Assembly (NCBI GenBank): GCA_026770705.1
Contig: JANJGN010000121.1
Location: 620,001-684,000, forward strand
Length of the DNA: 64,000 bases
Source of the DNA: Isurus oxyrinchus
Lineage: Eukaryota
Reading direction: 5' to 3'
Shown here: positions 34,617 through 61,073 of the stretch, piece after piece
How the letters are laid out: the number at the start of each line of letters is the position of its first letter
How positions within the stretch are numbered: the stretch's first letter is position 1
Made by a program: the position numbers and the translations under genes
Notes under the pieces: model-generated
Database searches by the model: none
The model's input: only the letters and a program-made list of their open reading frames with translations
Told to the model about the DNA's origin: nothing

Positions 34617-34756
34617 TCAAACAGTCTGTCGACTTCCTTTCACTGTTTGTCTCTCCCAGACACAGACTCCAGCGATAGTGATAACCACAGCCACAAGGAA
34701 TATCACAGCTCGTATTCCCAGGATCAGGATCACGTGCAGAATCTCTCCTCCACTGT
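34617..34756 (-). CDS. Gene B: TM + short tail exon with intramembrane Arg (activating type)
   Basis: tgtgttctctag acceptor, phase 1; xSGGEILHVILILGIRAVIFLVAVVITIAGVCVWERQTVKGSRQTV-stop; Arg codon CGA at 34712-34710; no Tyr in tail. The ORF track shows a different frame. Confidence 0.85.
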
Positions 34757-37459: not shown

Positions 37460-37828
37460 CAGAAACGTGAAGCTGGGTTACAGGGTAATAGTTATGGTTC
37501 GGACCATTGTCAAATTCTATCCTGAAAAAATAAGGTCCTGCATCTTCCCGTCTGATGTTGTTTATAATCAGGGAACAGTCGCCATCTTTCAGGTCTCCAG
37601 ACAGCCGGGTCCGATGGTGGAACCGTGGTAACTCGTGACTGTGATCCTTGGAGTGAAAGGCAATGGGAGCCCAGGGAATCTGTTTCTCATTATTAAACCA
37701 GAGTCCACCTCGCGGTTGGTTTTCCAGACACGATGGATAACTGTAATGACAAGGAATCTGTACACACGAACCTTCCTGCGCTGTCACCTCTCGTGGAGTG
37801 TCACCGTTCCACTCTTGTGAGGGTTCAA
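37460..37828 (-). CDS. Gene B: Siglec V-set exon (proximal), essential Arg present
   Basis: ctctccccag/gtaagt, 369 nt; VTAQEGSCVQIPCHYSYP...RTRLSGDLKDGDCSLIINNIRREDAGPYFFRIE; B- and E-strand Cys, no F-strand Cys. Confidence 0.93.
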
Positions 37829-37879
37829 CTGGGGAGAGAAATCTCAATATTTAACTCTGGATGGTTTGTGGATCCACTA

Positions 37880-38710
37880 GACTCAAATTTACAGATGAGG
37901 CTGAATTGGGGGGATGGTCAATACTGAGGAGGACTACAACAAATTATTTTGGCAGGAAGAATAGAAAAACAGGATATTATTTAAATGGAGAGAGGCTGCT
38001 GAATGCAGTACAGAGGGATCTGGGTGTCCTTGTACATGAATCACAGAAAGTCAGCATTCAGGAAAACCACGGAATGAGGAAGGCAAGTGGAACGTTGGCC
38101 TTTATTGCAAAGGGATGGAGTATAAAAGGAGGGAAGTCTTGCAACAGCTGCACAGGGTGAGATTGTATCAGGAGCAGTGTGTACAGTTCTGGTCTCCTTA
38201 CTTAGGGAGGGATAGACTCTGCATTGAAGGCAGTTCAGAGGAGGTCCACTGGGCTGATTCCTGGGATTAAAGGGTTTGTCCTGTGAGGAAATGTTGAGCA
38301 GGTTGGGCCTGTATCCATTGGAGTTTAGAAGAATGAGGAGTGACCTTATTGAAACATATCCGATTCCGAGGGGGCTTGACAGGGTGGATGCTGGGAGGAT
38401 GTTTCCCCCTCGTGGGGGAATCTAGAACCAGGGAGCACAGTTTCGGAATGAGGACTCTCCCATTTAAGACTGAGATGAGGAGGAATTTCCTCTCTCAGAG
38501 GGGCACTAGCCTGTGGAATTCTCTTCCCCAGACAGCAGTGGAGGCTGGGCCATTGAATAGACTCAAGGCTGAGTGAGGCAGGTTTTTGATCGACAAGGGA
38601 GTCAAGGGTTTGGGGGACAGGCAGGAAAATGGAGTTAAGGCCACAACCAGATCAGTAGAGCAGGCTGGAGGGGCCGAATGGCCTGCTCCTGTCCCTATTT
38701 CTTATGTTCC
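37880..38710 (+). mobile_element. CR1 LINE 3' part
   Basis: YYLNGERL..QRDLGVLVHES; 3' tail. Confidence 0.85.
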
Positions 38711-38784
38711 TACATTCTTACCATCTTAAAATATTAAAGCTGCAGAATAAACATGCAAGTGACTGACCCGCTCGACCCACCTTC

Positions 38785-40800
38785 CATCAGGGGCTGGAGG
38801 AGGTTACACAGATAGGGAGGTTTGTGGGGGCTGTAGGAGGTAACAGAGATAGGGAGGGCTGTAGATACTGGAGGAGGTTACGCAGATAGGGAGGGTGGTA
38901 GGACCTGGAGGAGGTTGCAGAGATAGGGAGGGCTATAGGGATTTGAGGAGTTTATGGAGATGGGGAGCGTGTAGGGACTGGAGGAGGCTGCAAGGGCAGA
39001 GAAGGTTTTAGGGGCAGGAGGAGTTTACAGGGATAGGAAGAGTTGTAGGGGCTGGACGGATTGCAGAGGTAGGGAGGGTTGGAAAGGCTGGTGGAGGTTC
39101 CAGAGGTAGGGAAGGTTGCAGGGACTGGAGGAGTTTACAGAGATGGGGGAGCTTTTGGGGCAGGATGGGGTTACAGAAATAGGGAGGTTTGTAGGGGCAG
39201 GACGAGGTTAGATAGATATGGAGTGTGGCTGGGGCTGAGGGAGGCTACAGAGATAGGGAGGGTTATAATGGCTGGAGGAGGTTACAGAGATAAAGGAAAC
39301 TCTTAGGGACTGGAGGAGGTTACAGAGATAGGGAGGGTTGTAGTGGGCTGGAGGAGGTTACAGAAATATGATGGGTTGTAAGAGATGGACCAGCTTACAG
39401 AGATAGGGAGAGGTATTCGGTCTGGAGGAGGTTGCAGAGATAGGGGAGGTTGTTAGGACTGGAGGAGGCTACAAATATCGCGAGGGTTATCGGGGCTTGA
39501 GGAGGTTAAAGAGATAGGGAGGGGTGTTGGGTCCAGAGGAGTTTGCAGTGATAGGAATGGTTTTCGGGATTGGAAGAGGGTACTGAGATAGGAGGGTTGT
39601 AGGGACTGGAGGAGGCTCCTGAGATAGGGAGGGTTGTAGGGACTGGAGGAGGCTCCTGAGATAGGGAGGGTTGTAGGGACTGGAGGAGGCTCCTGAGATA
39701 GAGAGGGTTGTAGGGACTGGAGGAGGCTCCTGAGATAGAGAGGGTTGTAGGGACTGGAGGAGGATCCTGAGATAGGGAATGTTGCCGTGGATGAAAATAA
39801 AGGAGGAGATTACTGTAATAGGGAGGAAAAATATTCAAAAATTTGGACATTGAGACTTTGCTTGACCAGGAGCCAGTCTCGGGCATCGAGCAGAGCGGGT
39901 GATAAGGGAACGGGACTTGGTGTGAGTAAGGACGTGGTCAGAAGTTTTGGATGGCCTCAAGTTTATGGAGTGTAGAGCGTGTGTTGGAACAGTCGAGTCT
40001 GAAGGTAATGAAGGCGTGGATGAGGGTTTCAGCAGCAGATGAGCTGAGACAGGGTGAAGTCTTGTGATGTTACGGAGGTGGAAATAGACGGTGTTAGTGA
40101 GGGCGCAAAATTGAGGCCGGAAGCTCATCTCAGGATCAAATGGGACAACAAAGCTGTGAACAGATTGGCTTCAATCTCAGAGAGCTGCCAGGGAGAGGAA
40201 TGGAGTTGGTAGCGAGGGAACAGAGTTTGGAGCGGGGAATGAAGACAATGGCTTCAGTCTTTCCAATATTTAATTGGAGGGAATTTCTGCCCATCCAGTA
40301 CTGGATGTCGGATAAGCAGCCTGATAATTTAGCAGCAGTGGAGGAGTCGAGAGAGGTGGTGGTGAGGTAGAGCTGGGGATCCTCAGTGGACAGGTGAAAA
40401 CTAACACTGTTCAGATGATGCTGCAAAGCCATTGCAAGTGATTCTCTGGCTACGATGAGATGGATAAGAATGGAGCCAGGGGAGAGCAGTCCCACCCAGC
40501 TGGACGACAGTGGAGAGGTGTTGGAGGAGGATGGTGTGGTCGAGCGTGTCAAAGGCTGCAGACAGATCGAGAAGGACGAGGAGGGAAAGTTGACCTTTGT
40601 CACAGTCACACAGGATGCCATTTGTGACCTTGATAAGAGCTGTTTCAGCACAGTGGCTGGGGTGGGAACCTGATTGGAGGGATTCAAACATGGAGCTCCA
40701 GGAAAGATGGGAACGGATTCGGGAGATGGAAACACGTTCAAGGACTTTGGAGGTGAAAGAGAGGCTGCAGATGGGACGGGGGTTTACACAGACAGTGTGA
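38785..40800 (-). mobile_element. L2-clade LINE fragment (39790-40800) with adjoining 37-bp minisatellite (38785-39780)
   Basis: FESLQSG...ETALIKVTN..L...LVLLDLSAAFDTLDH; LQLNIGKTEAI. Confidence 0.85.
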
Positions 40801-41055
40801 GGGGTGGAAGGTGTAGTGGGGAGGAGACACTTCACTCAGGGGGGAGGTGTCATCACCCCTCAGCTCGGTTTACGTTACAGCTATGATGTGGATTCAATCA
40901 CAGACAATAAGCTCATGGATCTGGGAGCAGAAATAGACAAATCATTAAAAATAGTGACGCTGGTTAACACGGCCAAAAAACAAGCAAATCAAACACTATT
41001 ATTTCCCATTGAGTGTTGAATGTGAATTGTTGAGTAATTATAACACAGCACTTAC

Positions 41056-41433
41056 CAGAAACCTGAAGCTGGGTTACAGGGTAATAGTTATGGCTCGGAC
41101 CATTGTCAAATTTTATCGTGAAAAAATAATATCCTGCATCTTCCCGTCTGATGTTGTTTATAATCAGGGAACAGTCACCATCTTTCAGGTCTCCAGACAG
41201 CCGGGTCCGATGGCGGAACTGTGGCAACTCGTGACTGTGACCCTTGGAGTGAAAGGCTATAGACCATTTAGACCATTTGTTCCGTATGTACCTTCTCATT
41301 TTCCAGATTCCGACATGTGGTTTCTTTACCAAATCTGATGGATAACTGTAATGACATGGAATCTGTACACACAAACCTTCCTGCGCTGTCACCTCTCGTG
41401 GAGTGTCACCTTTCCACTCTTGTGACAATCCAA
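41056..41433 (-). CDS. Gene B: Siglec V-set exon (distal), essential Arg replaced by Thr
   Basis: ctctccccag/gtaagt, 378 nt, open; VTAQEGLCVQIPC...DCSL...DAGYYFFTIK. Confidence 0.9.
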
Positions 41434-42057
41434 CTGGGGAGAGAAATATCAATATTTAACTCTGGATGTTTTGTTGATCCACTAGACTCGATATCCACCC
41501 CCTCCATCACTCGGGCACAGTGGCTGCAGTGTGGACCATCTACAGGACACACAATGAACTCCACAAGATATCACACCAGATGGAAGAGAATCCTGGACAC
41601 AAAAGCGGAAAAGTTCATTCTACATTGGTTCATGGTCCTCAGGACCCTGTTTGTGCAGAAGTCTGCTCTCCAACAGAACTGAAGTTGGGGACAATGCATT
41701 TGGAATTCCACTGTCCGGGGCATTGGGTTAACTTGCTGATTTTGTTTTAAATCCAACATCTATTTTTGGTCTGTTGCCTTAAAGGGAGTGTAACTGGGAG
41801 TCAGGTTAATTAGGAATTTTAGGAGTTATGATAGCAGTAATTGTAGTTATGTATGTGCTTGAAATCTTTTATTTTGATGACAAATATGTTAATTTATTGT
41901 TTTAAATCTCTAAAGGTATTGGTGGAGTTATTGCTTATGAATTAAGTGCACACATCTCATAATAAATACAAATTGCAAAATCATTATGATAGTGTGACCA
42001 GGTTTCTCTCAAGGACTTGGTCTGCCTGGCACACATCACCTGCCAAGTGATAACACT

Positions 42058-43349
42058 GTTGTAATATGCCTTTCAGGGACAGCAGCATGACATCACTCGA
42101 GGGGAAGTGTGTCATGTGATTTTTAGGAACTGGTGTTCGCTTAAGTAAGTTCTATGTGTATTTGTGTGCGTTAGGCAAAAGGTCTATCTTTAAGTTCAAG
42201 TTTAGTTTGTATTTCTGTATTTGGGTGTTGAGAAAAGGGGGAACTTGTGTTAAAAAGAAGCCAGCATTCCATTGAGGTTTTATGACTGTTGAAGGGAAGT
42301 CAAAACAAATACAAGGTGTAAGGAACTATGCTGTTGCCTAGCAACAGTGATCCAGAGGGAGGGACACACAGAGACCGAGAAAAACAGAAAAGTACTTTCA
42401 GTTCTGTTGAAAGGAGTTGCCAGGAGAAGCAGCAAAGGAGCGGGATAGATAGTCAGTCCCAAAGTAAAGAAGAAGCCAAATCTATCGAGTTTGACAGGAG
42501 AAAGGGCCCAAGAAAACCTTCTAGTCAAATCTGGAAAAGGCCCTGTAAAATGAAGTTAAGAGTGAGGAGCAGAAGAAGGCTTCAAGCATAAAGGGAGAAG
42601 CAGCAGGACACAGACCTAAAGCAAAATAGGCTTGTGAGAAGGCAGAAGATCCTAGGAGACACCACAGTTTGGTGACTCATTACTACGGCCATGTGAAGCC
42701 ATGGTGTTCCATTGACACGGCTGAGCATTGGAGAGACAGGGCGTGGAAGGAAGGCTGAATGCACGTGGCGATCCAGGGGGCAGGAACATGGGAAGGAGAG
42801 TTTGAAATAGTGAAAGTGGACCCTTGTGGAAGGTGTCTGAGTGAAAGTGTCATGTTGGAGGAGACTCCAAAGTGAGTTCTTGGAGAGTGGAGATTGGAAA
42901 CCCTCATATGAAAGAAGCTTTTCAGTGAGACTGGTTGGCTCACAGTGCAACAAGCGTCTGGGGACAAATGAGACATAGAATTTGTTTCAAGTGGGCTCTG
43001 CCACTTGCTTTCAGAATGTGGCGTCCCTGACCACAGGTCGTCTATAGTTTTACATCAACTGTGTACTTAGTGTGAACATGAGAGTATAAGATAGTTACCG
43101 TAACTTGTGTTCTGCTTATGAATCTGTAAAGGGATAGATCTGGGTGAATCAGTAATGTCATATAGTTTGTCTTTCCTAGTTTAATAAATGTTTTATTCTT
43201 TTGTTAGAAGTTCATCAGATGACTCCTGTGACTCTGTTCAGTAGCCGCACTCCACATTCCTAAATAAAAAATAAAAGTTAGGACCTATCAAGTTGAGTTC
43301 CACCCTGGGATCTGACTTGCCCAGTAGTAACATCAGCTGGGATGGTAAC
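42058..43349 (+). mobile_element. Solo LTR-like element
   Basis: tgttgtaa...ggtaaca termini, AATAAA at ~43183 and ~43263. Confidence 0.55.
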
Positions 43350-45700
43350 ACCATCCAGTCCAAGTCTCACTTTGGCCTGTGAGCAGAACACAGCTCACAC
43401 AGTTTGGCTGCAGGTGTCTCCCAGCTTTCTATCCTTGTATATCTGTTCTTATGTCCCTATTCTAAATAACTGAACCCACAATGTATTTACCCAATTCCGT
43501 ATCAGTGGCTGGTGCCTTTATATCATTATAAAAACACAACATGGTGATCAGTGGTGGCCAAACATTCTGGCAGCAAGATTCAGTACAGGTATGACGTGGT
43601 GAACAGGCTGAGATCGAGTTACATGACATGAGACAACCCTCGACGCTTTGGTCAGACCACAACAGAGACACAGCATCAGAGAGGGTTGAAATCGCAGTGT
43701 ACTGACTGCTCAGGAATCCTTTGAAGACACAGTGACGGGAAAGAGCTCAAGTAAAGAGCTGGGGAGCAGACGGATCCCTCGTGGTGAGATTACAGCACAC
43801 GGCCTGTAGGTCAGTGAGTGGGACAGTGTGTATCGCCAGGACCAGCAGCGGGTTAGCTCAGTCAGGGAAGGCGAGTGACCAGGGTGTGGGCTGGATCGAT
43901 AGTGAGCGAGGGAGAGTCAAACACACAAAAACCATTATAAAAATCAGCCCAGAGAAGTTAGTGATTATAACGGGCGGCTTCGAGATTGCTGAACAGCAAA
44001 TTGAATAAAAACAAAGACTCCTTTACTCCGTGGTGTGTTCCTGCCACAACCCGTCTCCGTGGGCAGAGCTTCGGAAAAGCACACGAAAGGGGCTAAAGTA
44101 ACACTCATCCCAGGTCCTGTAGGAGAAGGAAGGTCAAAGGAATATTGTCAGAATGTCCACGAAATTCCCCAGTTTGAACTGGGATGTAGCTGACCGACTA
44201 TCTGAATTCAGAATGTTTAAACAGCGTACAGAGCTCTGGTTTCCTGATTCAGGTGTGACTGAACCAGACGAGCAAGCCATAAAAATCCACCTCGCGATTG
44301 GGAATGAAGGTCTACACAGACTGAACACGTCAGAATTAACAGCAGAAGAGCGAAAGGGTCCCCAATAGATATGGATGATATTGGAAGACAGGTTCGGAAT
44401 CAGGTGAAACTCCATATTCATCAACTAGAGTTTATGTCATTTCATCAGCCTACACAATCCATAGACCACTTCATCAGCCGATGTAGAGAAAAGAGTACGC
44501 ACTGTGATTTCAAACACAGAGCCTGCAGACAGAGTTGTTGAGTTGGTGATCACATCCACTCCCATGGAAGCCTTCCAGAAAGATCTGCTAGATAAGACCA
44601 AAACCTATAGCATTGAAGAGTTACTCAAGGATGGACATAAATACGAACTGATCCTCGCAGGTCAACGAAGCTTACAGGTCCTCAGTACTACATCAATTGT
44701 TGACACACTCACTAGAACATCCAAACCTAGTGAGACGTGTGGAAGGTGTGGCCTTCTGCAGGAACCAAGGAAATGCCCAGCTTTCCACCAATCCTGCAAG
44801 GCTTGTGGCAGAAAGGGCCATTGACAGCGGCAGGGCACTAGAGCAAAGGCTGATGCAGCTACAAAGAGCCGTGCGCTGATCCAAACAAACCCTGCACAAC
44901 GGGGAAACTTCAAGCAATAAGAATGACCATCCGCTATCCCATCAGGAACATATACATGTGGTGACTGACAAACCAGGAAATGGCGATGATGTACACGACG
45001 AGTCTAGGACCGGTGATCGATATTCCACCTCTCACACATATCCTGACGTGGCTTGCCAATAAATTGTGGATTGTGGTCTTTATTGATCTCTCTGGGCACA
45101 TCAAATAAACTGAAAATGTTCCCATAGGGGTGGGATTTTCTGGCCCCACCGACTTCCAAGATTGACCGGTCCGGCTGAAAGCCAATGGATTTATGTCTGT
45201 CCCAGTCTCAGAAACTATCCCATAAACTCAGTTCATGACATAACATTGAAATATGCAGAAAGATTCAACAATATTGGCAGTTTGAAGGGAGCTGCAACAT
45301 TACACCTGCAGGAGATTGCAAGTCTGTCAGACTCCTTGCATTAAAATTAATACAGTCCAACTTTGCCACGCTATATTGAGCCTTAAATGGCCAATAATTT
45401 CTATGCCTTCCAGGTTCATTTGCTCTCTTCTAATTTTGGCTGTGCATCTCTCTCTGTTGAACCTCCTCTCGGGATCCCATCCCCTGCCATATTAGTTTAA
45501 AGCCTCCTCAATTGCATCAAGGGTGTAATGTCAATTGAAACCAGGGACAACATCAAAGAATGACAATCCCACAGATCAATGTGAGCAATTAAAGAAACCT
45601 CCAGACAATTTTGCCACCACAAGATCTCGACATAACAGCAGATTACCTCTACGCTTTAGAGACTCAAATATTCAACAGATCTATACACTTATGTAATTGT
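43350..45700 (+). mobile_element. Gypsy LTR retrotransposon remnant (gag 44153-44830)
   Basis: aaaacacaaca/tggtgatc LTR-PBS-like junction at ~43541; gag with CGRCG..CPAF...CKACGRKGH knuckles; stops and frameshifts. Confidence 0.75.
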
Positions 45701-46714
45701 CAAGAATTATGAAAATGATACCAGGAACCTCTTGTTCCCTGTCCTTCTCAAAGATCCATCCCTGCAGCAGGAGCCTGAAGAGTTACTGATGTGGGGCTTA
45801 ATTTATCAGATTGTAGAATGATCCGGAACAGAAGGATGCCATTTGGCCCATCGAGCCTGTGCTGGGCCTTTGAAAGATCTGTCCAATTAGTCCCACTCTA
45901 ACCTCTGCTCTCTCCTCCACAGCCCTGCAAAATGTCACCTTCAAGTATTTATCCAGTTCCCCTTCTGAAAGTTCCTGTTGAATCTGCTTCCATCGCTCTT
46001 TCAGGCAGTGAGTCAATGGTCTCTCTCTGAGCTGCAAAGTGCTAATGTTCTGAGAACTTTAAACACTGCAGCAGATCAGAGACAATCATGATAACTCAGA
46101 ATATTTGACACCTTTACACCCAGTCAGCTTTGCCTTTCTTCTCTCTTTCAGTTATCTTGCTCCCTTATTGAAGTATCTAGCAAGGTGAGAATGGACAGGA
46201 AGTGTGACACTGAACAGCCTGTCTATTCTAGGAGCTGCTGTGTTGTCTTCATGGGAAATTCTGACAAAATCAGCAAAAGACACAAAATTTCAGGGCATTG
46301 TTATCCGAGTCCCAGCATCAGGATAGACTTCATCCCCCCGTTGGTATTCCTGATTCTCTATTCAGCCGATCGCTCCCCTGTCACTGGCTGAACTACACTG
46401 GCTCCCAGTCCAGCAATGACTCAAATTTCAAATTCTCATCATTGATTTCTTACCCCACCATCCCCCCTCTACACTCTCTATCTGTGTAACCTCCTCCAAC
46501 CCTAAAAACCTCTGAGATCTCTGCACTCCTCCAATTCTGCTGTCAGACAGGGAGTCAGTGTATATCAGTGAGCACAGGGGTGATGGGTGAATGGGACTTG
46601 GTGTGAGTTTGTGCACTGGGTCACTGCTGAATCGGTTCCCAATCACACTCAATAAGAATGATCTTTTACAAAGACTATTAGCCATAAACCAATCCGAGCT
46701 GACGATGTTATTAC

Positions 46715-46754
46715 CTTGGAGAAGTGACAGGAGGAAGTAGGATTTCCCGATCAT
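46715..46754 (-). CDS. Gene B: signal peptide exon
   Basis: MIGKSYFLLSLLQ with donor caag/gtaata, phase 1; joins V exon to give ...LLQVGLSQEW; acceptor tttctctttcag just upstream (exon start 46796). Confidence 0.8.
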
Positions 46755-47169
46755 TGTCCACTCCCAGATATTTCATAAGCTTCTGACTCTCAAACTCTGA
46801 AAGAGAAAGGAGTTAATGAGACCTCACCTCTTGTCCGACAGCTCTCAAGAGATCAGAACTGCTTTTGGACAATGTCTTGACAGACTAATTTGATTCTCTG
46901 TGGGATGATAGGTGCTCTGCAGAGAGTTACAAGGCTTTAAGAAAGAAAAACATTGAAGGATTTGCATTTCTATAGCACCTTTCACCACCTCAAGATGTCC
47001 CAAAGCTCATGTCCCTGCACTTCCCTCATCCCTTGAGCTAGAAAGATGTTCTGTACAACAGACTTGAGTCTCACACCCAGATCTCAATAACCAGTAGAAA
47101 TCTTTCAAATGCATCAATCATTGGATCTGTCTTTATAAAGTCACAACATCAACAAAGGACGGTGTTGGT

Positions 47170-47350
47170 GGTGGAAGTGAATTCTAATCGTTCCGTTACT
47201 TACCCAGGACCTGTCCGACTGCTCGCCTGGGGAGGAACTGCCCACACGCTCTGCTTGGGCTGAATGACCTCTTCCTGTGCTGCTCCCTCTGTGTATTTAA
47301 TTAGAAAGGGTGGATGTGTCACTGTGAGACAAAATGAGGAAGTGGGTAAC
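47170..47350 (-). promoter_or_regulatory. Candidate 5' UTR exon / promoter of gene B
   Basis: Minus-strand gtaagt donor at 47203-47198; PU.1/ETS-like aaaatgaggaagtg at 47331-47344. Confidence 0.35.
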
Positions 47351-47574
47351 CAGTGAGAAGATCGAGGATGTTTTGTGCTCTCAGCAAAACGCTTACCATG
47401 TGATGATCTGTCAGCTCATATTTGGGCAGCTGTAGTCATGAAGCTTCTCCATTGGCTCCGTGGGATTAGACTCCTGCCCCTCACCTCGGAGGCTGAAACT
47501 CAGGCGATAAGAGTTCCCAATACAGGTCTCTGGCCTTATGATACATTTCAACGATCCCTGTTATCATTACAGAG

Positions 47575-50095
47575 TGAGTGCTGCACTGTCAGCGGGAGTT
47601 TACTGTGGGAGTGCTGCACTATCAGAGGGTCAGTAATGTGGGAGGGCTGCACTGTCAGAGGGTCAGTAATGTGGGAGTGCTGCAACATCAGAGCGTCAGT
47701 AATGAGGGAGTGCTGCACTATCAGAGGGTCAGTAATGTGGGAGTGCTGCACTATCAGAGGGTAAGTAATAAGGGAGTGCTGAACTGTCGGTGGGTCTGAA
47801 CTGAGTGAGTTCCGCACAGTTGGAGGGTCAGTATTGAGGGGGTGCCGGACTGTGGGAGGGTTAGTACTGAGGTAGAGTGGAGTGTGAGGAGATATCCTTT
47901 CATGGCAAAGTTTAACTGGAATTTATTTAAACACAATTCTTGTACTGTGTGTTATTGCAAAAGAAAGGATTTGAGGAACTAAGTCTTGTTCCCGTAAGCC
48001 TAAAAATAATTTTCACGGATTTCAATGATTTAGCAATGAAACCTCCCTCTTTGTGCACCAGTCTTGATAGAAACAACTCGCTCAGCACAGTGGGAGGGTG
48101 AGTACTGAGGGAGTGCTGCACTGTGGGAGGGTGAGTACTGAGGGAGTGCTGCACTGTGGGAGTATGAGTACTGAGGGAGTGCTGCACTGTGGGAGAGTGA
48201 GTACTGAGGGAGTGCTGCACTGTCAGAGGTTCAGTAATGAGGGAGTGCTGCACTGTCAGAGGGTCAGTAATGTGGGAGGTCTGCACTGTCAGATGGTCAG
48301 TAATGAGGGAGTGCTGCACTGTCAGAGGGTCAGTAATGTGGGAGGGCTGCACTGTCAGAGGGTCAGTAATGTGGGAGTGCTGCACTGTCGGAGGGTCAGT
48401 ACTGAGTGAGTTCCGCACAGTTGGAGGGTCAGTATTGAGGGAGTGCCGGACTGTGGGAGGGTTAGTACTGAGGTAGAGCGGAACGTGAGGAGATATCCTT
48501 TCATGGCAAAGTTTAACTGGAATTTATTTAAACAGAATTCTTGTACTGTGTGTTATTGCAAAAGAAAGGATTTGAGGAACTAAGTCTTGTTCCCGTAAGC
48601 CTAAAAATAATTTTCACGGATTTCAATGATTTAGCAATGAAACCTCCCTCTTTGTGCACCAGTCTTGATTGAAACAACTCACACAGCACTGTGGGAGGGT
48701 GAGTACTGAGGGAGGGCTGCACTTCGGAAGAGTGAGTACTGAGGGAGGGCTGCACTGTGGTTTGTGAGTACTGAGGGAGTGCTGCACTGTGGGAGAGTGA
48801 GTACTGAGGGAGTGCTGCACTGTCAGAGGATCAGTAATGAGGGAGTGCTGCACTGTCAGAGGGTCAGTAATGTGGGAGGGCTGCACTGTCAGAGGGTCAG
48901 TAATGTGGGAGGTCTGCACTGTCACGTGGTCAGTAATGAGGGAGTGCTGTACTATCAGAGGGTCAGTAATGTGGGAGGGCTGCACTGTCAGAGGGTCAGT
49001 AATGTGGGAGGGCTGCACTGTCAGAGGGTCAGTAATGTGGGAGGTCTGCACTGTCAGATGGTCAGTAATGAGGGATTGCTGCACTGTCAGAGGGTCAGTA
49101 ATGTGGGAGGGCTGCACTGTCAGAGGGTCAGTAATGTGGGAGTGCTGCACTGTCGGAGGGTCTGTACTGAGTGAGTTCCGCACAGTTGGAGGGTCAGTAT
49201 TGAGGGGGTGCCGGACTGTGGGAGGGTTAGTACTGAGGTAGAGCGGAGAGATATCCTTTCATGGCAAAGTTTAACTGGAATTTATTTAAACACAATTCTT
49301 GTACTGTGTGTTATTGCAAAAGAAAGGATTTGAGGAACTAAGTTTTGTTCCCGTAAGCCTAAAAATAATTTTCACGATTTCAATGATTTAGCAATGAAAC
49401 CTCCCTCTTTGGGCATCAGTCTTGATTGAAACAACTCGCACAGCACTGTGGGAGGGTGAGTACTGAGGGAGGGCTGCACTGTGGGAGGGTGAGTACTGAG
49501 GGAGTGCTGCACTGTGGGAGGGGGAGTACTGAGGGAGTGCTGCACTTCGGGAGAGTGAGTACTGAGGGAGGGCTGCACTGTGGGAGGGTGAGTCCTGAGG
49601 GAGTGCTGCACTGTGGGAGGGTGAGAATTGAGGGAGTACTGCACTGTGGGAGCGTCAGTACTGAGGGAGTGCTGAACTGTCGGAAGGTCAGTAGTGAGGG
49701 AGGGATACAGTGTCAGAGGGTCAGTACTGAGGGAATGCTGCACTGTCAGTTTGTCAGCACTGTGGGAGTGCTGCACAGTCAGAAGGTGTGTACCGAGGGA
49801 GTGCCGAACTGTCGGAAGGTCAGTAGTGAGGGAGGGATACAGTATCAGAGGATCAGTACTGAGGTAATGCTGCACTGTGGGTGAGTGAGTACTGAGGGAG
49901 TGCTGCACTGTCAGATTGTCATCCATGAGGGAGTGCTGCACTGTCAGAAGGTCAGTGCTGACGGGGTGCTGCACTTGAAAAGGGTCAATAATGAGGTAGT
50001 GCAGCACTGTCAGAGGGACAGTAATGAGGGAGCGCTGCACTGACGGAGGGTCAGCACTGAAGAAACGCTGCACTGTCAGTTCTGAGCGTGGTCTG
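47575..50095 (+). repeat. 33-bp minisatellite arrays interleaved with a triplicated ~190-bp spacer
   Basis: Spacer gatatcctttcatggcaaag...gaaacaactc at ~47890, ~48491, ~49249. Confidence 0.9.
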
Positions 50096-50789: not shown

Positions 50790-51400
50790 AATAAGCTTTT
50801 CATAAATCGAGGCATTGAGTACAAACACAGGGAGGTTATGCTGAACATTTATAAAGCTCTGGTTAGGTCACAACTAGAGTATTGTGTCCAGTTCTGGTCT
50901 CCCCACTTTGGGAAGGAAGTGAGGGTCCTTGAGAGGGTGGGGAGGAGATTGAGCAGAATGGGTCCAGGGATCAGGGATTTTAGCTACAAGGTTGGGTTGG
51001 AGAAGCTGGGGTTGTTCTCCTTGGAGCAAAGGAGATTGAGGGGGGATCTGATCGAGGTGTACAAGATGATGATGGGTTTAGATAAGGCAGACAAAGAGAT
51101 GCTGTTGCCATTAGCTGATGGTACAAGGACTGGGGGACACAGATTGAAGGATTTGGACAGGGGGTGATGTGAGAAGGAACTTTTTTACACAGCGAGTGGT
51201 AATGAGCTGGAACTCGCTGCCTACGAGGATGGTGGAAGTGGAGACGATGAACGATTTCAAAAGGAAATTGGATGGACACATGAGGGGAAATAAACTCACA
51301 GGGATACGGGGATAGAGCGGGGGAAATGGGACTGAGTGGATTGCTCTACAGAGAGGCAGCATGGACTCAATGGGCTGAATGGGCTCCTACTGTGCTGGAA
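50790..51400 (+). mobile_element. CR1 fragment (paralog of 33895-34500)
   Basis: Near-identical sequence and junctions. Confidence 0.88.
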
Positions 51401-51518
51401 TACCTCTCTGATATGAAGGTGATTCTAACCAGGACACTGACCAGTTTCATTACAACTTAACCCAACATCACACGTTATTTGTCCGCACTGACTGACCAGA
51501 TTGTTGCTGTACAAAGCT

Positions 51519-51658
51519 TCAAACAGTCTGTCGACTTCCTTTCACTGTTTGTCTCTCCCAGACACAGACTCCAGTGATAGTGATAACCACAGCCACAAGG
51601 AATATCACAGCTTGTATTCCCAGGATCAGGATCACGTGCAGAATCTCTCCTCCACTGT
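51519..51658 (-). CDS. Gene C: TM + short tail exon, Arg changed to Gln
   Basis: Same acceptor as gene B; xSGGEILHVILILGIQAVIFLVAVVITITGVCVWERQTVKGSRQTV-stop; CAA at 51614-51612. Confidence 0.85.
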
Positions 51659-52779
51659 CTAGAGAACACACAGAAAGAAATCATCACTGACTCTCCGCTT
51701 TCAATCTCTCACTCTGGCTGAACAATCAAGCTTCATATCACTGCAACATTTGCTGTAATATTGACCCATCCACTGGGATTCAATGTGGAATGAATGTTTT
51801 CATTGTAAACACTCTAAGAGTGGACAATCGGAACTTTCCCCTTAGCGTGGAACATTGGTGAGAATGGATCATTGTGCTGTTGGACTCCCTGTCCAATGTT
51901 TCTCTCCATCGCTGTGTACAGGATTGTGCTGTAGAAAATTCTGGAAACGTTTAGTGCAGGGTGGAAATCCATCTCGGACGCCTGTGTGATTCGGGCAGGA
52001 TCGAGATGGACTCCCCCACGGACTTACACCCCCCGCTTAATAAACAGTTCCAATCTTTACCCAGAGAGAGGGGAGAATGTGGAACTCGCTCCCACTGGGA
52101 GTGGTTGAGGTGAGTAGTAGCGAATTAGGAAGTGAAATTGCTTGAAAAGCTGGGAGATGCAAGGGTTAAGTGCAACCGTGCCACCACTGGTGGGAGAGTG
52201 TAACTACAGCATAACGTTTACATAGGCAATCCCCATTATAAACAAGGACATTGGACATCATGTGAAATATGTGCACTGGAAAGCTGAGAACATGATGTAA
52301 GCTTTTCACCAACAGGAATTCCCTTCCTAAACCTCTCCACCTCTCTCTTACTCTCAGATACTCAAACAAAATTTCACACAAAATCACGTAAGGATGAGTT
52401 GGGACAGGTGACTGGTCAAAGGGTTAGGTTTCAGGAAGCTTCTTAAAGGAGGATAGAAAGTTGGAGAGGCAGAGAGTATCTGTGAGTATCTCTGTGCATC
52501 TGAGTGTCTGTAGTAGACTTTGAAATTTCCATATTCTTCCATTAATATGAAAGGGAACACAAATCCCAGAATCCAGGTCAACTCTCCGGTGCAACACTGA
52601 AGGAGGTCAGGAAACCCACAGGGCAGTATGTGATAGTGTATTTGTTTGTGAGTGTGTCTTTGTGTGTGCTCATAGATGTGGGATTGTGTGTCTGCAGCTG
52701 TCTATTTAGGTCTGTATATTTATGTGTGTTTGTGTAGTGTTTGAATCTAAGAGAGATGTTGAAGTCTGTGTACACTCAC

Positions 52780-52932
52780 GTTCCACAGTGATGGTTATGA
52801 ACCCCTCCACTGCTCCATGTTCATTCTCTGCCACACACTGATAGTCTCCAGTGTCCATGGATGTAACATGAGGAATCACCAACCACAGCTCATTGTTGGA
52901 ACTTGTTCTGTTCATTGGGACATTGAGATGTC
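52780..52932 (-). pseudogene. Gene C: 3' half of a gene A-type C2 exon (pseudo-exon)
   Basis: Same breakpoint and in-frame TGA as in gene B; HLNVPMNRTSS...DTGDYQC...ITVE, gtgagt donor. Confidence 0.85.
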
Positions 52933-53253
52933 AGGGCAGGACTCAACAAGACAGATCGCAGGTTTACCACAGAAAATGAACAACAATTTATATTTAAAGG
53001 GAAGAGAGTGCTGATTGGGTGGCACGTGATCTCTGATTGGAGGAGAGTTGCCATGGAAAATAATGTGTGCGAGCTGTAAAGTTTAGACAGCTTGTCCCTT
53101 CATTCAGCAATAATCAATTAAAGATCAGTTAACTTCTATCGACTGTGAAGCACTTAGAGAGGCATGAGAATGTAGATACTGAGAACGGGCTGCACTGTCA
53201 GAGGGTCAGCGCTGAGGGAGTGCTGATGTAGAATGAAGGGTGTATGTAATTAC

Positions 53254-53550
53254 CTTGCACAGTTAGTACGAGGGTCCGCTCCGATGAAACAGATGGATAT
53301 CTCACTCTGCAGCTGAGAGTGTGTCTGTGGTGTTTGAGTGATGGGATCAGGGTCAGAACAGAAGTATAGGTCAGAGTGACACCATGCTGAGTTACAGTGT
53401 TTGAGACTGATCCAGGTACGTCAGTGGGAGTGTCCCAGGTTAAGACAGGTGCTGCTGTTCCATTGCACGTTGTGTTGAAGGTGCAGCTTACATCCACACG
53501 CTTTCCTGCAATAATTTCAGCAGGGAATATCGTGGGTTTATCTGTGAAAT
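53254..53550 (-). CDS. Gene C: Siglec domain-2-type C2 exon (proximal copy)
   Basis: tctgttag/gtaatt, 297 nt, open, near-identical to 36350-36646. Confidence 0.9.
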
Positions 53551-54865
53551 CTAACAGACAGAGAATGGATCCTTTTAGAGAAATATAACGTGAAGCATCA
53601 GTTCAAATAGAAACCACAGTCCCACAAGAGAAAGCACTTTTACAAGGATGATATCAGAACTGAGAGGTTACAATGATCATTAAAGAATTGTCTATTTTTA
53701 CACTTGTTGAATCTCTGTCACTCAGATTAATACACTCTCACTCAGTGACCCTTGATTTGACCAGACTGGGTGAGGGTGGAGGAACAGCTCACAGCTCGGG
53801 GAGAACAGACTCAGCATTTGGAAAAGGATATAGAGACACTGGAGAGGGTGGTAAAAAGCTTCACAAGGATGATCTCCGCAATGTGAGGCTTTACCTATCA
53901 GGAGAGGATGAACAGGCTGGGTCTCTGTTCTCTTGAACAGAGAAGGCTGAGGGGTGACATCATTTGATCTTTGAAGTAATGAAAGGTTTTGATCGAGTAG
54001 ACATGGAGAGAGTGTTTCCACTCATCACAATGAACAAAACCAGAGGCTGACAGTATAACATCCTCACTAATAAATCCAATGGGGAATTCAGGAGAAACTT
54101 CTTTACCCAGAGAGTGGGGAGAATGTGTACTTCAAGAATCACTTCATTGGCTGTGAATCGATTTAGGATCGTCCTGAGGTGGTGAAAGGCGCTATAGAAA
54201 TGTGAGACTTGGTTTTGTATTTTGAAAGCAGGTTTCCAAGGATGAGATGGGAACTGAGAGGTAACAACAATCAGCAGCAACTTTCCTATTTTCAAACTTG
54301 GTGGGGAATGTGTCACTGAGCTGAATACACTTTCACTCCCAGACCCTTGAATTGCCAACACTGGGGTGTGGGTGATGGAGCAGCCCACAGCTCATGGAAC
54401 CCTGGCTCATCATTCTCTCAGAGATCTGGGTCACTGATCCCATTGCTCTCTGTGGGAGCTTCCTGTGTACAAACTCACTGCCACGTTAGACAGTGACTAT
54501 ACTTCAAGAATTTCTTCATTGTCTGTGAAGTGATTTGAAGTTTGTTGAGGTGGTGAAAGGTGCTATAGGAATGCACGTCCTTCTTTTGTCAAATTGTTAG
54601 ACTTTTAAACAGGATTAGAGAGACTGATGGGAGTGGATAGCCTGATAACATTGATGGACACAGTCAATACATTTAATCATTGACATTAAAGTGATTATTA
54701 GAGGTTGCTTTAAGACTGAACTGGAAGCAATCACCAGGTTATTGAGAATCAGACAGTGTGTAAAAATAAACTGTGTTTTGTGTTAATATGTAAACGTCAC
54801 AGTTTGTGTTATTTCCCATTGAGTGTTGAATGTGAATTGTTGAGTAATTATAACACAGCACTTAC

Positions 54866-55230
54866 CAGAAACATGAAGCTGGGTTACAGGATAGTAGTTG
54901 TATCTTTTCCTGCCGTCAAATTCTATCCTGAAAAAATAAGGTCCTGCATCTTCCCGTCTGATGTTGTTTATAATCAGGGAACAGTCGCCATCTTTCAGGT
55001 CTCCAGACAGCCGGGTCCGATGGTGGAACTGTGGTAACTCGTGACTGTGATCCTTGGAGTGAAAGGCAATGGGAGAACCCAATTTGTGTGTTTCTTTATT
55101 ACACCAGATTCCATCTCGTGGTTTGTTTTCCAACTCTACTGGATAACTGTAACGAAATGGAATCTGTACACAGATTCCTGCGCTGTCACCTCTCGTGGAG
55201 TGTCACCTTTCCACTCTTGTGACAGTCCAG
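54866..55230 (-). pseudogene. Gene C: frameshifted V-set exon
   Basis: Splice sites intact but 365 nt (net -4 after VTAQE) giving an early TAG; B-strand Cys also TGT>TTT; YFFRIE retained downstream. Confidence 0.87.
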
Positions 55231-55404
55231 CTGGGGAGAGAAAACTCAATATTTATCCCTGGATCCTCATTGTTTAATGAATCTCTTTGGATCTTCTTTG
55301 TCTAAGGAATCTTTTTGGATCCTCATTGTCTAAGGGATTATTTCTGATCCAAACCCCATATTGTTGTATTGTTGATTCCGATGCAGCATTGTAGACTGAC
55401 TCGT

Positions 55405-58150
55405 CCCCCAAAAAACTGTGTATCTCAGCCTTGAATATAATTAATGACCCAGCCTCTGCAGCTCTCTGCGGTATAGAATTCCACACATTCACTACCCTCT
55501 GAGAGAAGAAACTCCTCATCTCTGTCTTAAATGGGTGACCCCTTACTCTGAGATTATGCCCTCTGGTCCTAGACTCTCCCACAAGGGGAAACAACCTCTC
55601 AGCATCTACCCTGTCAAGCACCCTAAGAATCTTATATGTTTCAATAAGGTCAGCTCTCATTCTCCTAAACTCCAATGAGTACAGGCCCATCCTACTCAAC
55701 CTCTCCTCATATGAAAATCCCTCCATTACTGGGATCAACCTAGTGAACCTTCTCTGGACTGCCTCCAATGCCAGTACATCTTTCCTTAGATAAGGGAACC
55801 AAAACTGTTCACAGTATTCTAGGTGTGGTCTAACTAGTGCCTTGTATAGTTTTAGCAAGGCTTCCCTATTTTTATACTCCATTCCCTTTGAAATAAAGGC
55901 CAACATTCCACCTGCCTTCCCTATTAACTGTTGAACTTGTATGTTATCTTTCTGATGACCCCCAAATTCCTCTATGCTTCAGCTTTCCAATGTCTTTCTC
56001 CATTGAAATAATATTCAGCTCCTCTATACATCCTGCCACAGTGCAGCAGCTCACATTTTCCCACATTATATTCCATCTGCCAAGTTGATGCCCACTCACT
56101 GAACCTGTCTATGTCCCTCTGTAGACTCTTCGTGTCACCCTCACCGCTTGCCTTCCCATCTATTTTTGTGTCATCCACAAACTTGGCGAAAGTACATTAA
56201 TTTCCCTCATCCAAGTCATTAATATATATTGTAAATAATTGTGGCCCCAGCACTGATCCCTGTGGCAATCCACTGGTTGCCATCCTGAAAATGCCCCCTT
56301 ATCCCAACTCTCTGACTTCTATTAGTTAGCCGATCCTCTATCCATGCTAATATACTGCCCTCATCACCATGGGCTCTTATCTTATTAAGGAGCCTTATAT
56401 GTGGTAATTTACTGAATGCCTTTTGGAAATCCAAATATATTACATCTACTGGTTCCCCTTTATCTATCCTGTTTGTTACCTCCTCAAAGAATTCTAATAA
56501 ATTTGTCATGCATGATTTCCCCTTCATGAAGCCTGTGTGTGATTAAATTATGCATTTCTAAATAGTCTGCTATTACATTCTTTATAATGGACTCTAACAT
56601 GTTCCCAATGACAGATGTTAAACTCACTGGCCTATAGTTACCTGTTTGTTGTCTCCCTCCCTTTTTGAATATGGGTGTTACTTTGGCAGTTTTCCAATCC
56701 TCTGGGACTTTCCCAGAATCTAAGGATTCTTGGAAGATTAAAACCAGTACATCCACTATCTCTGCATCTACTTCCTTTAATATCCTAAGATGCAACCTAT
56801 CAGGTCCAGGTGACTTATCAGCCTTGAGACCCATTAGTTTCGCTAGCGTTATTCTCTAGTGATAGTTACTGTATTTATTTCCTCTCCCCACCCCCCTTTT
56901 GCCCCTTGATTATTTAGTATTTTTGGAATGATATTAGTGTGTTCTACCGTGAAGACTGATGCAAAGTATTTCTTCAACTCCTCTGTCATTTCCTGGCTCC
57001 TCATTATTATTTCCCTAGCCTAGTTCTCTAAGGGGCCCATGTTCACTTTGGTCTCTCTCTCCCTTTTTATATATTTAAAGAAGCTTTTATTGTCCTTTTT
57101 TATATCAATTGCTAGTTTACCTAGTTTTCTCCCTTTTTCTTTATTTTTTGGTCATCTTCTGTTGGTTTTTAAATCTCTCTCAATCCTCTGGCTTACCACT
57201 AATCTTTGTCATGCTGCATGTTTTTTCATTCAATTTGACACACACCTTAACTTCTTTGGGTAACCCAGGTTGGTTTATTCTCTTCCTACAATCCTTCTTT
57301 CTCACTGGGATATATCGTTGTTGTGAGTCATGAGCTATTTTCTTAAAGATCTGCTATTGTTCATCCACCATCTTTTCTGCTAAACCCCTTTCCCAGTCCA
57401 CTCCAGACAACCCTGTCCTTATGCCTTTGTAATTACACTTATTTAAGTCCAGCACAGTTGTTTCCGACCCAGGTTTCTCAGTCTCAGAGGGAATGCTAAA
57501 TTGTACCAGGTTATGGTCACTGTTTTCCAGGGGATCATTTATTCTGAGATCATGTATTAAACCTGCCTCATTACACATTACCAGATCCAAAATAGCCTGA
57601 TCCCTGGTTAGATACACGACATATTATTCCAGGAAACTGTCTTGAATACACTCTATGAATTCTTGCTCATGGCTACCTCTGCCAATTGGGTTTTCCCAAT
57701 CTACTTGAAGATTAATGTACTGCCTTTTTTACATGCCCTCATTATCTCATGATTTATTCTCTGTCCTACAGCCGAGCTACAGTCATGGGGCTGATAGACC
57801 ACTCCCACCAGTTCCTTGTTCTCCTTGTTATTCATTACCTCGAGCCATATGGATTCTATACCCTCCGATCCAAGATCATTTCCTGCTTTCGTACTTATTC
57901 CATCTCCTATTAACAAAGCTACCCCACCACCTTTCCTTCCTGCCTGTCTTTTTGAAAAGTCACATACCCCTGAATATTTATTTCAAAGCTTTGATCTCCT
58001 TGTAACCATGTCTCCATAATGGCTATAAGATCAAACCCATTAACCTCTATTTGTGCCTTTAATTCATTTATGTTGTTCCAAATACTATGTGCATTTAAGC
58101 CAAGAGCCATTAATTTTGTCTTTTTATCATTTTCCTCCCTCTGACACTAT
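55405..58150 (-). mobile_element. Near full-length, decayed CR1 ORF2 (endonuclease + RT)
   Basis: LNAHSIWN..LIAIMETWL, ILDLVMCN, SDHN, KSPGPD, NYRPVSLTS, YLDFQKAF, DDTK, LEAVQRRFTRLIP. Confidence 0.92.
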
Positions 58151-58309
58151 TTGCTGATGTATTTTAATGTTTGGACGCTGTGTACCCACCTGTCACACAC
58201 TGGGTATCATCACCAAAACAGCTATCCTGCAATGCTGACAAATCCTTTTGCTTTGTAAGCCTACACATACCCTCTCCAGAACACTCTCCCCATCTATTTA
58301 GTATAAAGG

Positions 58310-59340
58310 CAATACTGAGGGAGAGCAGCACTGTGTCAAAGGGTCATTACTGAGGGACTGTTGCACAGTTGGAAGCTCTGGAACGAGGGACTGCAGCATT
58401 ATCTGAGTGTCAGTCGGCAGGGAGGTATTCAATGTTGGATTGTAAGGTCTCAGGGAGCGCTGCAGAGTTGGAGGTTCAGTAGTGAAGGAGTGCTGCACTG
58501 TCAGAGGGTCAGTACTGAGGGAGTGCTACACTGTCAGAGGGTCAGTACTGAGGGAGTGCTGCACTGTTGGAGGGTCAGTACTGTGGGAGTGCTGCAGTGA
58601 CGGAGGATCAGTACGGAGAGATTTCTAAACTGTTGGAGGATCAGTACTGAGGGAGTGCTGCACTGTCAGAGGGTCATTACTGAGGGAGTGCTGCACTGTC
58701 AGAGGGACAGTACTGAGGGAGTGCTGCACTGTCAGAGGCTCAGTACTGAGAGAGTGTTGCACTATCAGAGGGACAGGACTGAGGGAGTGCTGCACTGTCA
58801 GAGGGACAGGACTGAGGGAGTGCTGCACTGTTAGAGGGTCAGTACTGAGGGAGTTCTGCACTGTCAGAGGGTCAGAACTGAGGGAGTGCTGCCCTGTCAG
58901 AGTGTCAATACTGAGGGAGTGCTATACTGTCAGAGTGTCAGTACTGAGGGAGTGCTGCACTGTCAGAGGGTCAGTACTGAGGGAGTGCTGTACTGTCAGA
59001 GGCTCAGTACTGAGGGAGTGCTGCACTGTCGGAGGGTCAGTACTGAGGGAGTGCTGCCCTGTCAGTGGGTGAGTACTGAGGGAGTGCTGCACTGTCAGAG
59101 GGTCAGTACTGAGGGAGTGCTGCCCTGTCAGAGGGTCAGTACTGAGTGAGTGCTGCACTGTCAGGGGGTGAGTACTGAGGGAGTGCTGCACTGTCAGAGG
59201 GTCAGTACTGAGGGAGTGCTGCTCTGTCAGAGGGTCAGTACAGAGGGAGTGCCACACTGTCAGAGGGTCAGTACTGAGGGAGTGCTGCACTGTCAGAGGG
59301 TCAGTACTGAGTGAGTGCTGCACTGTCAGGGCGTGAGTAC
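58310..59340 (+). repeat. 33-bp minisatellite
   Basis: Roughly 30 tandem units. Confidence 0.9.
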
Positions 59341-59551
59341 ATTGCGATTCCTGCTCTGCTCTATCGGTCAATTGGCTGGAAATAAAAGCCGTTGTGTTAC
59401 TGTTCAGAAACTATTATTAATTGTGTTCTGGTCACTATTTTCCCTGAAAAACAGATTCTCTGATTGTCATCAGAATACCTTTCTATGGAATCCTGCTGTG
59501 CATTATCTACACTGTTCCAGCTAACGTAGAATGAAGGGTGTCCATACTTAC

Positions 59552-59848
59552 ATTGCACAGTTAGTACGAGGGTCCGCTCCGATGAAACAGATGGATATCT
59601 CACTCTGCAGCTGAGAGTGTGTCCGTGGTGTTTGAGTGATGGGATCAGGGTCAGAACAGAAGTATAGGTCAGAGTGACACCATGCTGAGTTACAGTGTTT
59701 GAGACTGATCCAGGTACGTCAGTGGGAGTGTCCCAGGTTAAGACAGGTGCTGCTGTTCCATTGCACGTTGTGTTGAAGGTGCAGCTTACATCCACAGGCT
59801 TTCCTGCAATAATTTCAGCAGGGAATATCGTGGGTTTATCTGTGAAAT
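59552..59848 (-). CDS. Gene C: Siglec domain-2-type C2 exon (distal copy)
   Basis: tctgttag/gtaagt, 297 nt, open; KPV instead of KRV. Confidence 0.9.
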
Positions 59849-60707
59849 CTAACAGACAGAGAATGGATCCTTTTAGAGAAATATAACGTGAAGCATCAGT
59901 TCAAATAGAAACCACAGTCCCACAAGAGAAAGCACTTTTACAAGGATGATATCAGAACTGAGAGGTTACAATGATCAGGAAAGATTTTCTTGCTCTTTGG
60001 CAGTAGTGTTTCTGTCTCTCAGCTTAATACACGTTCACTCCGAGACATGTGAATTGAGAACACTGGATGAGAGAAGAGGCTCAGACCAGAGATTGGAGTT
60101 AAAAGCAGAATACTGCGGATGCTGGAAATCTGAAACAAAAACAAAAATTGCTGGAAAGACTCAGCAGGTCTGACAGTATCAGTGGAGAGGAAGACAGGGT
60201 TAACGTTTTGAGTCCGTATGTCTCTTCATCAGACCAGAGGTTTGAGTTCACTGGCTTCTCATTTCCTCAGTGATCTGGGTGATTTATCACCTTGTGGTTT
60301 GTTGGATCTTGCTGTGCACAAACTGCCTGCTGTGTTTTACATCTGTGACTACAATTCAGGAATAATGTCATTGGCTGTGAAGGGATTTGGATCCTCCTGA
60401 GGTGGTAAATTGCGCTGCAGAAATGCACATCTTTCTTTTATCGATACGTCAGACTTTTAAACAGGACAGGAGAGATTGATGGGAGTGGATAACCTGATAA
60501 TACAGTTAATGCTTTTCATCATTGATATTAAAGTGAGTATTAGAGGTTGCTTTAGAACTGAACTGGAAGCTATCACCAGGTTATTGAGAATCAGACAGTG
60601 TGTTATAATAAGCTGTGTTTTGTGTTAATATGTAAACGTCACAGTTTGTGTTATTTCCTATTGAGAGTTGAAAGTGAATTGTTGAGTAATTATAACAAAG
60701 CACTTAC

Positions 60708-61073
60708 CAGAAACGTGAAGCTGGGTTACAGGATAGTAGCTGTATTTATTTCTGCTGTCAAATTCTATTCTGAAAAAATAAGGTCCTGCATCTTCCCGTC
60801 TGATGTTGTTTATAATCAGGGAACAGTCACCATCTTTCAGGTCTCCAGACAGCCGGGTCCGATGGTGGAACCGTGGTAACTCGTGACTGTGATCCTTGGA
60901 GTGAAAGGTTATAGACGATGTTCTCCATTCCTCATTATTAAACCAGATTCCAACTCGTGGTTGCTTTTCCAAATGTGATGGATAACTGTAATGACATGGA
61001 ATCTGTGTACACGAACCTTCCTGCGCTGTCACCTGTTGTGGAGTGTCACCTTTCCACTCTTGTGACAGTCCAA
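60708..61073 (-). CDS. Gene C: Siglec V-set exon, essential Arg present
   Basis: ctctccacag/gtaagt, 366 nt, open; VTAQEGSCTQIPC...DAGPYFFRIEFDSRNKYSYY. Leader expected just beyond 64000 by paralogy with gene B. Confidence 0.92.

Follow-up and report, generated by a model that had tools for sequence, protein, structure and literature searches.

The locus considered here raises the question of how exons that are almost identical along most of their length can differ sharply in three short loops. It lies in a 64,000-nucleotide stretch of the shark Isurus oxyrinchus (assembly GCA_026770705.1, contig JANJGN010000121.1, positions 620,001 to 684,000 of the forward strand), hereafter the window, which contains four V-set exons of Siglec type on the minus strand and three C2-set domain-2 exons. 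The V exons carry the BC, CC′ and FG loop sequences quoted in a first-pass annotation, which had read them as hypervariable under diversifying selection on the ligand face. The contrast appears to arise chiefly because the framework is homogenised while the loop types are old; it still likely needs selection, keeping the loops apart rather than driving rapid amino-acid replacement. We favour, with a probability of roughly 60%, a model in which a frame homogenised by conversion carries old loop types, kept by selection and recombined by exchange, within a large paired family of Siglec-type receptors. Gene conversion or unequal crossing-over would keep the framework and domain 2 uniform across copies; selection, rather than mechanics, would preserve a small number of old types of BC, CC′ and FG; and exchange between copies would recombine these loops onto activating and inhibitory receptors.

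Within the window, pairs of the four V exons differ at 1–8 of 141 nucleotides over the stretch from C′ to F, compared with 6–13 of 33 in BC and 6–9 differences in 26–31 aligned nucleotides, plus 3–23 gap columns, in CC′. The differing loops on near-identical frameworks reported by the first-pass annotation are thereby recovered, with corrections: one V exon is frameshifted, and FG is nearly equal in one pair (the exons at 41 and 37 kb, differing at 1 of 21 nucleotides). The downstream intron, described as almost identical, is so for about 55 nucleotides in all four copies and for 130 in three; further out the difference reaches 14–16% at nucleotides 131–330 and about 30% at 331–530.

Of 183 V exons recovered in all, 135 were chosen regardless of their loops; the contiguous 664 kb in which the window lies supplied 44 and contig C52 the other 91, these by a framework pattern. 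The 48 exons chosen by protein similarity were excluded from every statistic. Copies on C52 had to match a 30-base framework pattern exactly or to lie adjacent to an exact match, a condition that biases the C52 sample towards uniform frameworks. The 135 sampled exons include 107 intact and 92 distinct copies, and 84 of the 92 could be parsed into segments. Among 600 pairs of these 84, the mean pairwise difference is 0.21 in BC, 0.19 in CC′ and 0.19 in FG, against 0.04–0.05 in the framework, 0.03 in the first 55 intron nucleotides and 0.14 in alignable intron nucleotides 131–330. Loop divergence therefore stands about 4–8 fold above the framework and near intron, as the first-pass annotation had anticipated; its comparison of loop with intron divergence nevertheless succeeds only in part, because the farther alignable intron is exceeded just ~1.5 fold.

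Domain 2 behaves like the framework. Its three exons in the window are indeed nearly invariant (7 of 297 positions vary), and the 116 intron bases preceding them are all identical. For 76 family copies the median difference is 2.4% in the exon and 3.8% in the preceding 105 intron nucleotides, rising to 20–37% beyond. The ratio of nonsynonymous to synonymous rates (omega) for domain 2 is 0.81, not different from 1, so purifying selection alone cannot account for this uniformity. Near-identity that runs into an intron and then stops is the pattern expected from exchange between copies.

The loops do not vary freely and appear to be shuffled. With clustering thresholds chosen by us, the 92 distinct copies fall into 11 BC, 10 CC′ and 6 FG types, found in 23 combinations; for the two commonest CC′ and FG types all four pairings occur (44, 7, 6 and 9 copies). 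The fraction of incompatible site pairs, a recombination signal, increases from 0.22 within 15 bases to 0.37–0.42 beyond 40 bases (p = 0.0002).

The age of the loop types was assessed with 112 V domains from other sharks. CC′ loops with a PWAP end occur in lamniform, carcharhiniform, orectolobiform and squalomorph species, and those with an SS end in the same four groups and in Heterodontus. In a set of 62 V domains, framework distance tracks taxonomy (0.141 within species across types, 0.233 across orders within type), whereas loop distance tracks type (0.490 within species across types, 0.411 across orders within type). FG, which was not used in typing, is tied to the CC′ type across orders (0.49 vs 0.63, permutation p = 0.0005); the framework barely is (0.243 vs 0.249). 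Old loop pairs have therefore lasted longer than their surrounding frameworks. Because loops are able to move as a whole, selection is likely needed for them to survive; local divergence peaks that stand despite conversion are described as marking selection in the available portion of PMC3924837. A further CC′ class, the long basic loop of the 41-kb exon, rich in Arg, Lys and Trp, was seen among the 112 domains in lamniforms only.

Could ongoing diversifying selection, driving rapid loop replacement, be instead the main source of the contrast? Omega was estimated with one tree per segment and a CpG term, with implementations of our own whose branch lengths were obtained by scaling nucleotide trees. 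It is 0.63 in the framework (p = 0.0006 vs 1) and 1.05–1.11 in the loops (p = 0.55–0.78 vs 1), the loops exceeding the framework at p = 0.013. BC alone gives 1.5, not significantly above 1 (p = 0.125), FG 0.91, and CC′ within types 0.5–0.8, below 1 but not significantly. In site models, which exclude CC′ because its types do not align, M2a is preferred over M1a with segment trees (twice the log-likelihood difference, 2dL, 20.1; 14.9 with the CpG term), placing about 11–13% of codons at omega 2.4–2.6. Codons 33 and 36 (BC) and 109 (FG/G) survive the CpG term with posteriors of 1.00, 0.92 and 0.99; apparent hits at codons 12, 69 and 92 are CpG sites that drop once CpG is modelled, and were set aside as CpG decay. 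Codon 33 is most often Cys (37 of 92), which may be structural. Moreover, 5 of 68 null simulations on eight mosaic trees, run without positive selection and possibly with more recombination than the real data, reached the observed grid statistic of 15.7. Separate omegas for terminal and internal branches showed no difference, and species differ hardly at all within a loop type. A few BC and FG codons may thus be under positive selection, but as the principal cause of the contrast, rapid replacement seems unlikely to us. The diversifying selection proposed in the first-pass annotation accordingly keeps a site-model signal that recombination without positive selection can sometimes match; the loop average is close to 1. 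Tree lengths on the synonymous scale are 6.1–7.6 for the loops, 3.6 for strands D–F and 2.2 for G.

A loop omega near 1 would also suit neutral persistence, in which loosely constrained loops last without selection in a family of fast birth and death, mismatch itself blocking conversion. The many broken copies and partnerless exons agree with such turnover, CC′ types do differ in length, and the introns likewise stop homogenising past a boundary. The loops, however, are islands of 20–40 nucleotides within homogenised sequence, and whole loops move between backgrounds, so that they are not shielded from exchange. Two loop pairs have lasted across four to five lineages while frameworks were replaced, and CC′ omega within types lies below 1, even if not significantly. 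We regard neutral persistence as somewhat less probable again than rapid replacement.

Several observations weigh against selection-kept loops on a homogenised frame. As the average loop omega is not above 1, the codon data do not prove selection directly, and the synonymous-scale trees of the N-terminal framework (5.0) and C′–D (5.6) are long as well. The cross-species comparison covers the 51 of 112 shark domains that belong to the two types tested; the other 61, and 31 V domains from rays, are excluded, and the orectolobiform PWAP record rests on a single sequence. CC′ types were defined from CC′ itself, making the loop tree partly circular, and the framework retains a faint trace of type (13 changes vs 21 when shuffled). 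Furthermore, 28 of the 135 sampled V exons are broken, and near-duplicates are frequent: 31 of 132 V exons have a neighbour at 99.5% identity or more and 14 of 132 at 99.9% or more, leaving 101 of 132 without one above 99.5%. Four sampled 10-kb pairs on C52 (~1.40–1.51 and 2.44–2.55 Mb) are 99.9–100% identical at an offset of ~1.04 Mb, reflecting either a duplication of very recent date or sequence duplicated by the assembly, and some family copies may be assembly duplicates.

These near-identical blocks and neighbours could be taken further, as a sign that the uniform frames, the mixture of loops and the many copies are mostly artefacts of an assembly that kept both haplotypes or joined chimeric contigs. 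This we consider very improbable: most V regions have no such neighbour, other shark genomes, assembled independently, show these architectures and mixtures of loops too, and RNA contigs show the predicted joints. The family is in any case very large. Exact copies of the 30-base framework pattern number 588 in the 4.98-Gb assembly, and its reverse has none, so that the V exons of the window belong to a shark family with at least 588 V exons. Patterns for domain 2, the Arg/Gln anchor, the neutral anchor and the leader match 519, 228, 202 and 350 times (up to one mismatch); the reversed domain-2, anchor and leader controls have 0 matches each. The contiguous 664 kb alone hold 44 V exons, 33 C2 exons, 32 leaders, 16 neutral anchors and 13 activating-type anchors. 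The closest proteins come from lamniform sharks (87–88% identity), followed by other sharks and rays. A few members with distinct loops reside on large scaffolds (G000:C34:15138066-15189575 and G000:C25:36073437), and the anchored location of the family cluster may be C34. Leader-exon matches recurring every 2–7 kb at G000:C121:1331658-1357828 and C150:1013224-1051015 suggest a tandem array of leader-only units.

The V exons belong to the Siglec family, having a V-set Siglec fold followed by C2-set domains, as the first-pass annotation had proposed. The intact exon at 60708..61073 (the 61-kb exon) matches Siglec-5, CD33, sialoadhesin and MAG at expectation (E) values of about 1e-13 to 1e-15, with scores within 6 bits of each other. 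The exons also match the Pfam families V-set and Ig_CD22. The predicted structure of the 61-kb V domain (predicted local distance difference test score, pLDDT, 87) fits sialoadhesin, MAG, CD33 and Siglec-7 best, at template modelling (TM) scores of 0.8–0.9. Domain 2 matches domain 2 of CD33 and MAG; a nectin scores higher. Modelled strands are B 22–29, C 40–45, C′ 54–57, F 96–103 and G 109–120, and the most variable columns in the 92 distinct copies are 33–40, 44–53 and 106–110; given these strand positions, the variation covers BC, CC′, FG and the start of G. Its placement in these segments by the first-pass annotation is confirmed on the model; the loop sequences quoted there are correct, but their limits shift, as the segment called BC ends in strand C and that called FG runs into strand G.

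Siglecs have cysteines in strands B and E rather than B and F, with an extra cysteine in the V domain and in domain 2 for an inter-domain bond. Cys21, Cys26 and Cys83 of the shark exon align with those of Siglec-5, CD33 and sialoadhesin, and the domain-2 Cys pair aligns with CD33, so that cysteine bonding of Siglec type is predicted from the aligned positions. In Siglecs, aromatic residues at the N-terminus and on strand G pack against sialic acid. The N-terminal Trp6 is present in 92 of 92 distinct copies, and the strand-G position is Tyr in 24 of 92 and His in 66 of 92. The strand-F Arg, the residue that Siglecs need for sialic acid, is kept by the exons at 61 and 37 kb, by 92 of the 107 family exons that are intact and by 108 of 112 V domains of other sharks. 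Of its 15 losses, 14 fall in the long-CC′ class, the 41-kb exon among them; within this class Arg is absent in 14 of 21 intact copies here, and the lamniform domains of the other two species keep it in 26 of 26. The V domains may bind sialylated glycans.

The family has a paired receptor design, with shared ectodomains on two kinds of end: a charged transmembrane segment with a short tail, or a neutral one with tails of immunoreceptor tyrosine-based inhibitory motif (ITIM) type. Every loop class is found on both activating and inhibitory ends (PWAP 11 and 14 copies, SS 4 and 5, long 3 and 4, other 5 and 2; 37 were not resolved). Judging by the buried Arg and the motifs, Arg-bearing anchors are predicted to signal through an adaptor with an immunoreceptor tyrosine-based activation motif, and the tyrosine-motif tails to inhibit. 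The loop combinations are in turn predicted to set glycan or pathogen specificity. A Siglec-7/9 loop-swap experiment reportedly bears on the role of CC′ that the first-pass annotation had invoked. In the available part of PMC7250851, the C–C′ loop of Siglec-7 is implicated in specificity. We tentatively speculate, with less confidence than for the model above, that the shark family could act as a combinatorial lectin repertoire encoded in the germline: on a constant frame, several hundred Siglec genes would combine three loop cassettes by gene conversion, some of the cassettes predating the divergence of the main shark lineages, and would connect them to activating or inhibitory ends. Such a repertoire would recognise glycans and microbes with antibody-like breadth and no somatic rearrangement.

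Evidence for splicing comes from the contigs of four sequencing runs, presumed to be RNA and covering two samples and two studies. In these contigs V is connected with C2, and C2 with the Arg anchor, at the GT-AG sites that had been predicted; V-to-V joints also appear, and one 972-base contig carries V, C2 and anchor. The evidence holds at the level of the family and cannot be assigned to window copies. For the Arg-less long-CC′ type, no contig covering 41284-41321 at 95% was found in four runs, and one run is probably DNA; this is not evidence of absence.

The V exons of the window fall into two units defined by leaders. Gene A has the order leader, V, V, C2 and Arg-bearing transmembrane exon with a short tail, an identical layout to that of the white-shark models P0025 and P0027. 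All its exons are on the minus strand. The coding part of its leader exon (46715..46754) matches the N-termini of P0013 and P0033. The first V exon (41056..41433, the 41-kb exon) carries the long basic and aromatic CC′ (41302-41261) and Thr in place of Arg (41119-41117); the second (37460..37828, the 37-kb exon) keeps Arg, has His at the strand-G aromatic position, an extra Cys in BC (37733-37701) and a CC′ with PWAP end (37697-37665). A domain-2 exon (36350..36646) is followed by a domain-3 remnant (35868..36026), which the C2-to-transmembrane joint in the RNA contigs skips, and by the transmembrane exon (34617..34756), in which an Arg is buried and whose short tail has no tyrosine motif; this exon is of activating type, and P0025, P0027 and P0043 have the same end.

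The second unit, also on the minus strand, begins with a leader just beyond the window edge (G000:C121:684518-684608) and continues with the 61-kb V exon, in which Trp6, Arg101 and Tyr110 are all present, with BC at 60978-60946, a short CC′ with SS end at 60942-60913 and FG at 60759-60739. Next come its domain-2 exon (59552..59848) and the broken 55-kb V exon (54866..55230), which lacks its own leader and has a 4-base deletion near 55175 and Phe at the B-strand Cys. The lesion is real, since the same deletion is found in a copy on C52 that is 99.3% identical. A further domain-2 exon (53254..53550), the 3′ half of a domain-3 exon without acceptor (52774..52932) and an activating-type transmembrane and short-tail exon with Gln where Arg is usual (51519..51658) complete the unit. 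The four V exons cannot therefore be four independent intact paralogues, as one is frameshifted and two lie in a single gene. The 41-kb exon has no domain 2 of its own; its interpretation as an orphan was also rejected, because the leader-V-V-C2-transmembrane layout is found repeatedly across the 664 kb and among database models, and RNA contigs contain V-to-V joints.

On the plus strand, 1628..7222 holds the 3′ part of an inhibitory-type family member with three domain-3 exons, a neutral transmembrane exon (4871-4966) and tail exons (5846-5925, 6975-7222) bearing an ITIM-type and a distal tyrosine motif. Tyrosine-motif tail exons are often tandemly repeated, for instance at G000:C121:603931-607015, with 22 last exons per 16 neutral anchors in the 664 kb. 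The acceptor-less half domain-3 exon occurs 15 times in the same stretch, mostly preceding an Arg anchor. A gene at G000:C121:581036-594300 (minus strand) contains 13 tandem domain-3 exons and a stop codon in its V; the domain-3 count ranges from 0 to 13 among neighbouring genes, indicating wide variation in stalk length.

A different V fragment of Siglec type at 15851-16261 (plus strand) is closest to sialoadhesin and MAG (E 7e-10). It stops before the strand-F Arg and recurs 6 times in the 664 kb, with 97–100% identity where measured. Two minisatellites are also present: a dispersed one of 33 bp (325-683, 6138-6414, 32845-33190, 47572-50077 and 58452-59340), whose 58.4–59.3 kb array starts ~200 bases past the 59-kb domain-2 exon, and one of 37 bp (19344-20261, 22925-24142 and 38789-39778).

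Related gene models already exist in databases. Shark and ray proteins automatically named Siglec-12-, Siglec-13- or Siglec-10-like, CD33-like and MAG-like represent the same family (118 proteins, 47–100% coverage, up to 88% identity) and share the V-V-C2-transmembrane layout. We found no paper treating the Siglec-like shark and ray models as a family, and no description of a shark Siglec expansion in the literature searched, which mostly did not extend to subscription journals; the whale-shark genome paper, in its available part, mentions Siglecs once, as a jawed-vertebrate family. Expanded, paired and conversion-prone Siglec clusters are known mainly from mammals, with few genes; a shark family of several hundred would show that cartilaginous fish evolved or enlarged this design separately, and to a far greater extent. 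The family would also form a natural loop-swap library, with the same frame carrying known BC, CC′ and FG combinations, so that specificity could be tested with about 20 natural proteins. A caution follows for similar loci: an alignment of four copies looks hypervariable, whereas the codons speak mostly for old types that have been retained despite conversion.

Among known systems, the closest are the mammalian CD33-related Siglecs (Siglec-5, -7, -8 and CD33), sialoadhesin and MAG, which share with the shark family the V-set fold at 28–34% identity, the N-terminal Trp, the strand-F Arg, the Cys pattern, ITIM-type tails and, in part of the copies, the strand-G aromatic residue. By match scores, no one mammalian Siglec can be singled out as orthologue. 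CD33-related genes number 4–5 in mouse and three small primates according to the available part of PMC4384638; the shark, unlike these mammals, has hundreds of copies, common tandem V domains and loops that behave as recombining types. In primates, the paired receptors Siglec-11/16 and Siglec-5/14 share outer domains through repeated conversion and with relaxed constraint, as far as the accessible text of PMC5701461 and PMC13358205 describes. There, two genes have been made alike across the V exon, whereas the probable conversion among hundreds of shark copies leaves several loop types in place.

Local divergence kept amid homogenised sequence is described, in the portion of PMC3924837 available, for the red/green opsins, RHD/RHCE, protocadherins and MHC; the same source notes that gene conversion creates new haplotypes and that broken copies are possible donors. 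The chicken ChIR genes form a lineage-specific family of hundreds of immunoglobulin-type immune receptors, which are related to LILR/KIR-type receptors, and located in the equivalent region (both from the accessible part of PMC10247546), and not to Siglec lectins. The shark exons differ from the opsin, RHD, protocadherin and MHC cases in having three short peaks of divergence within one exon of 370 nucleotides, which recombine with each other.

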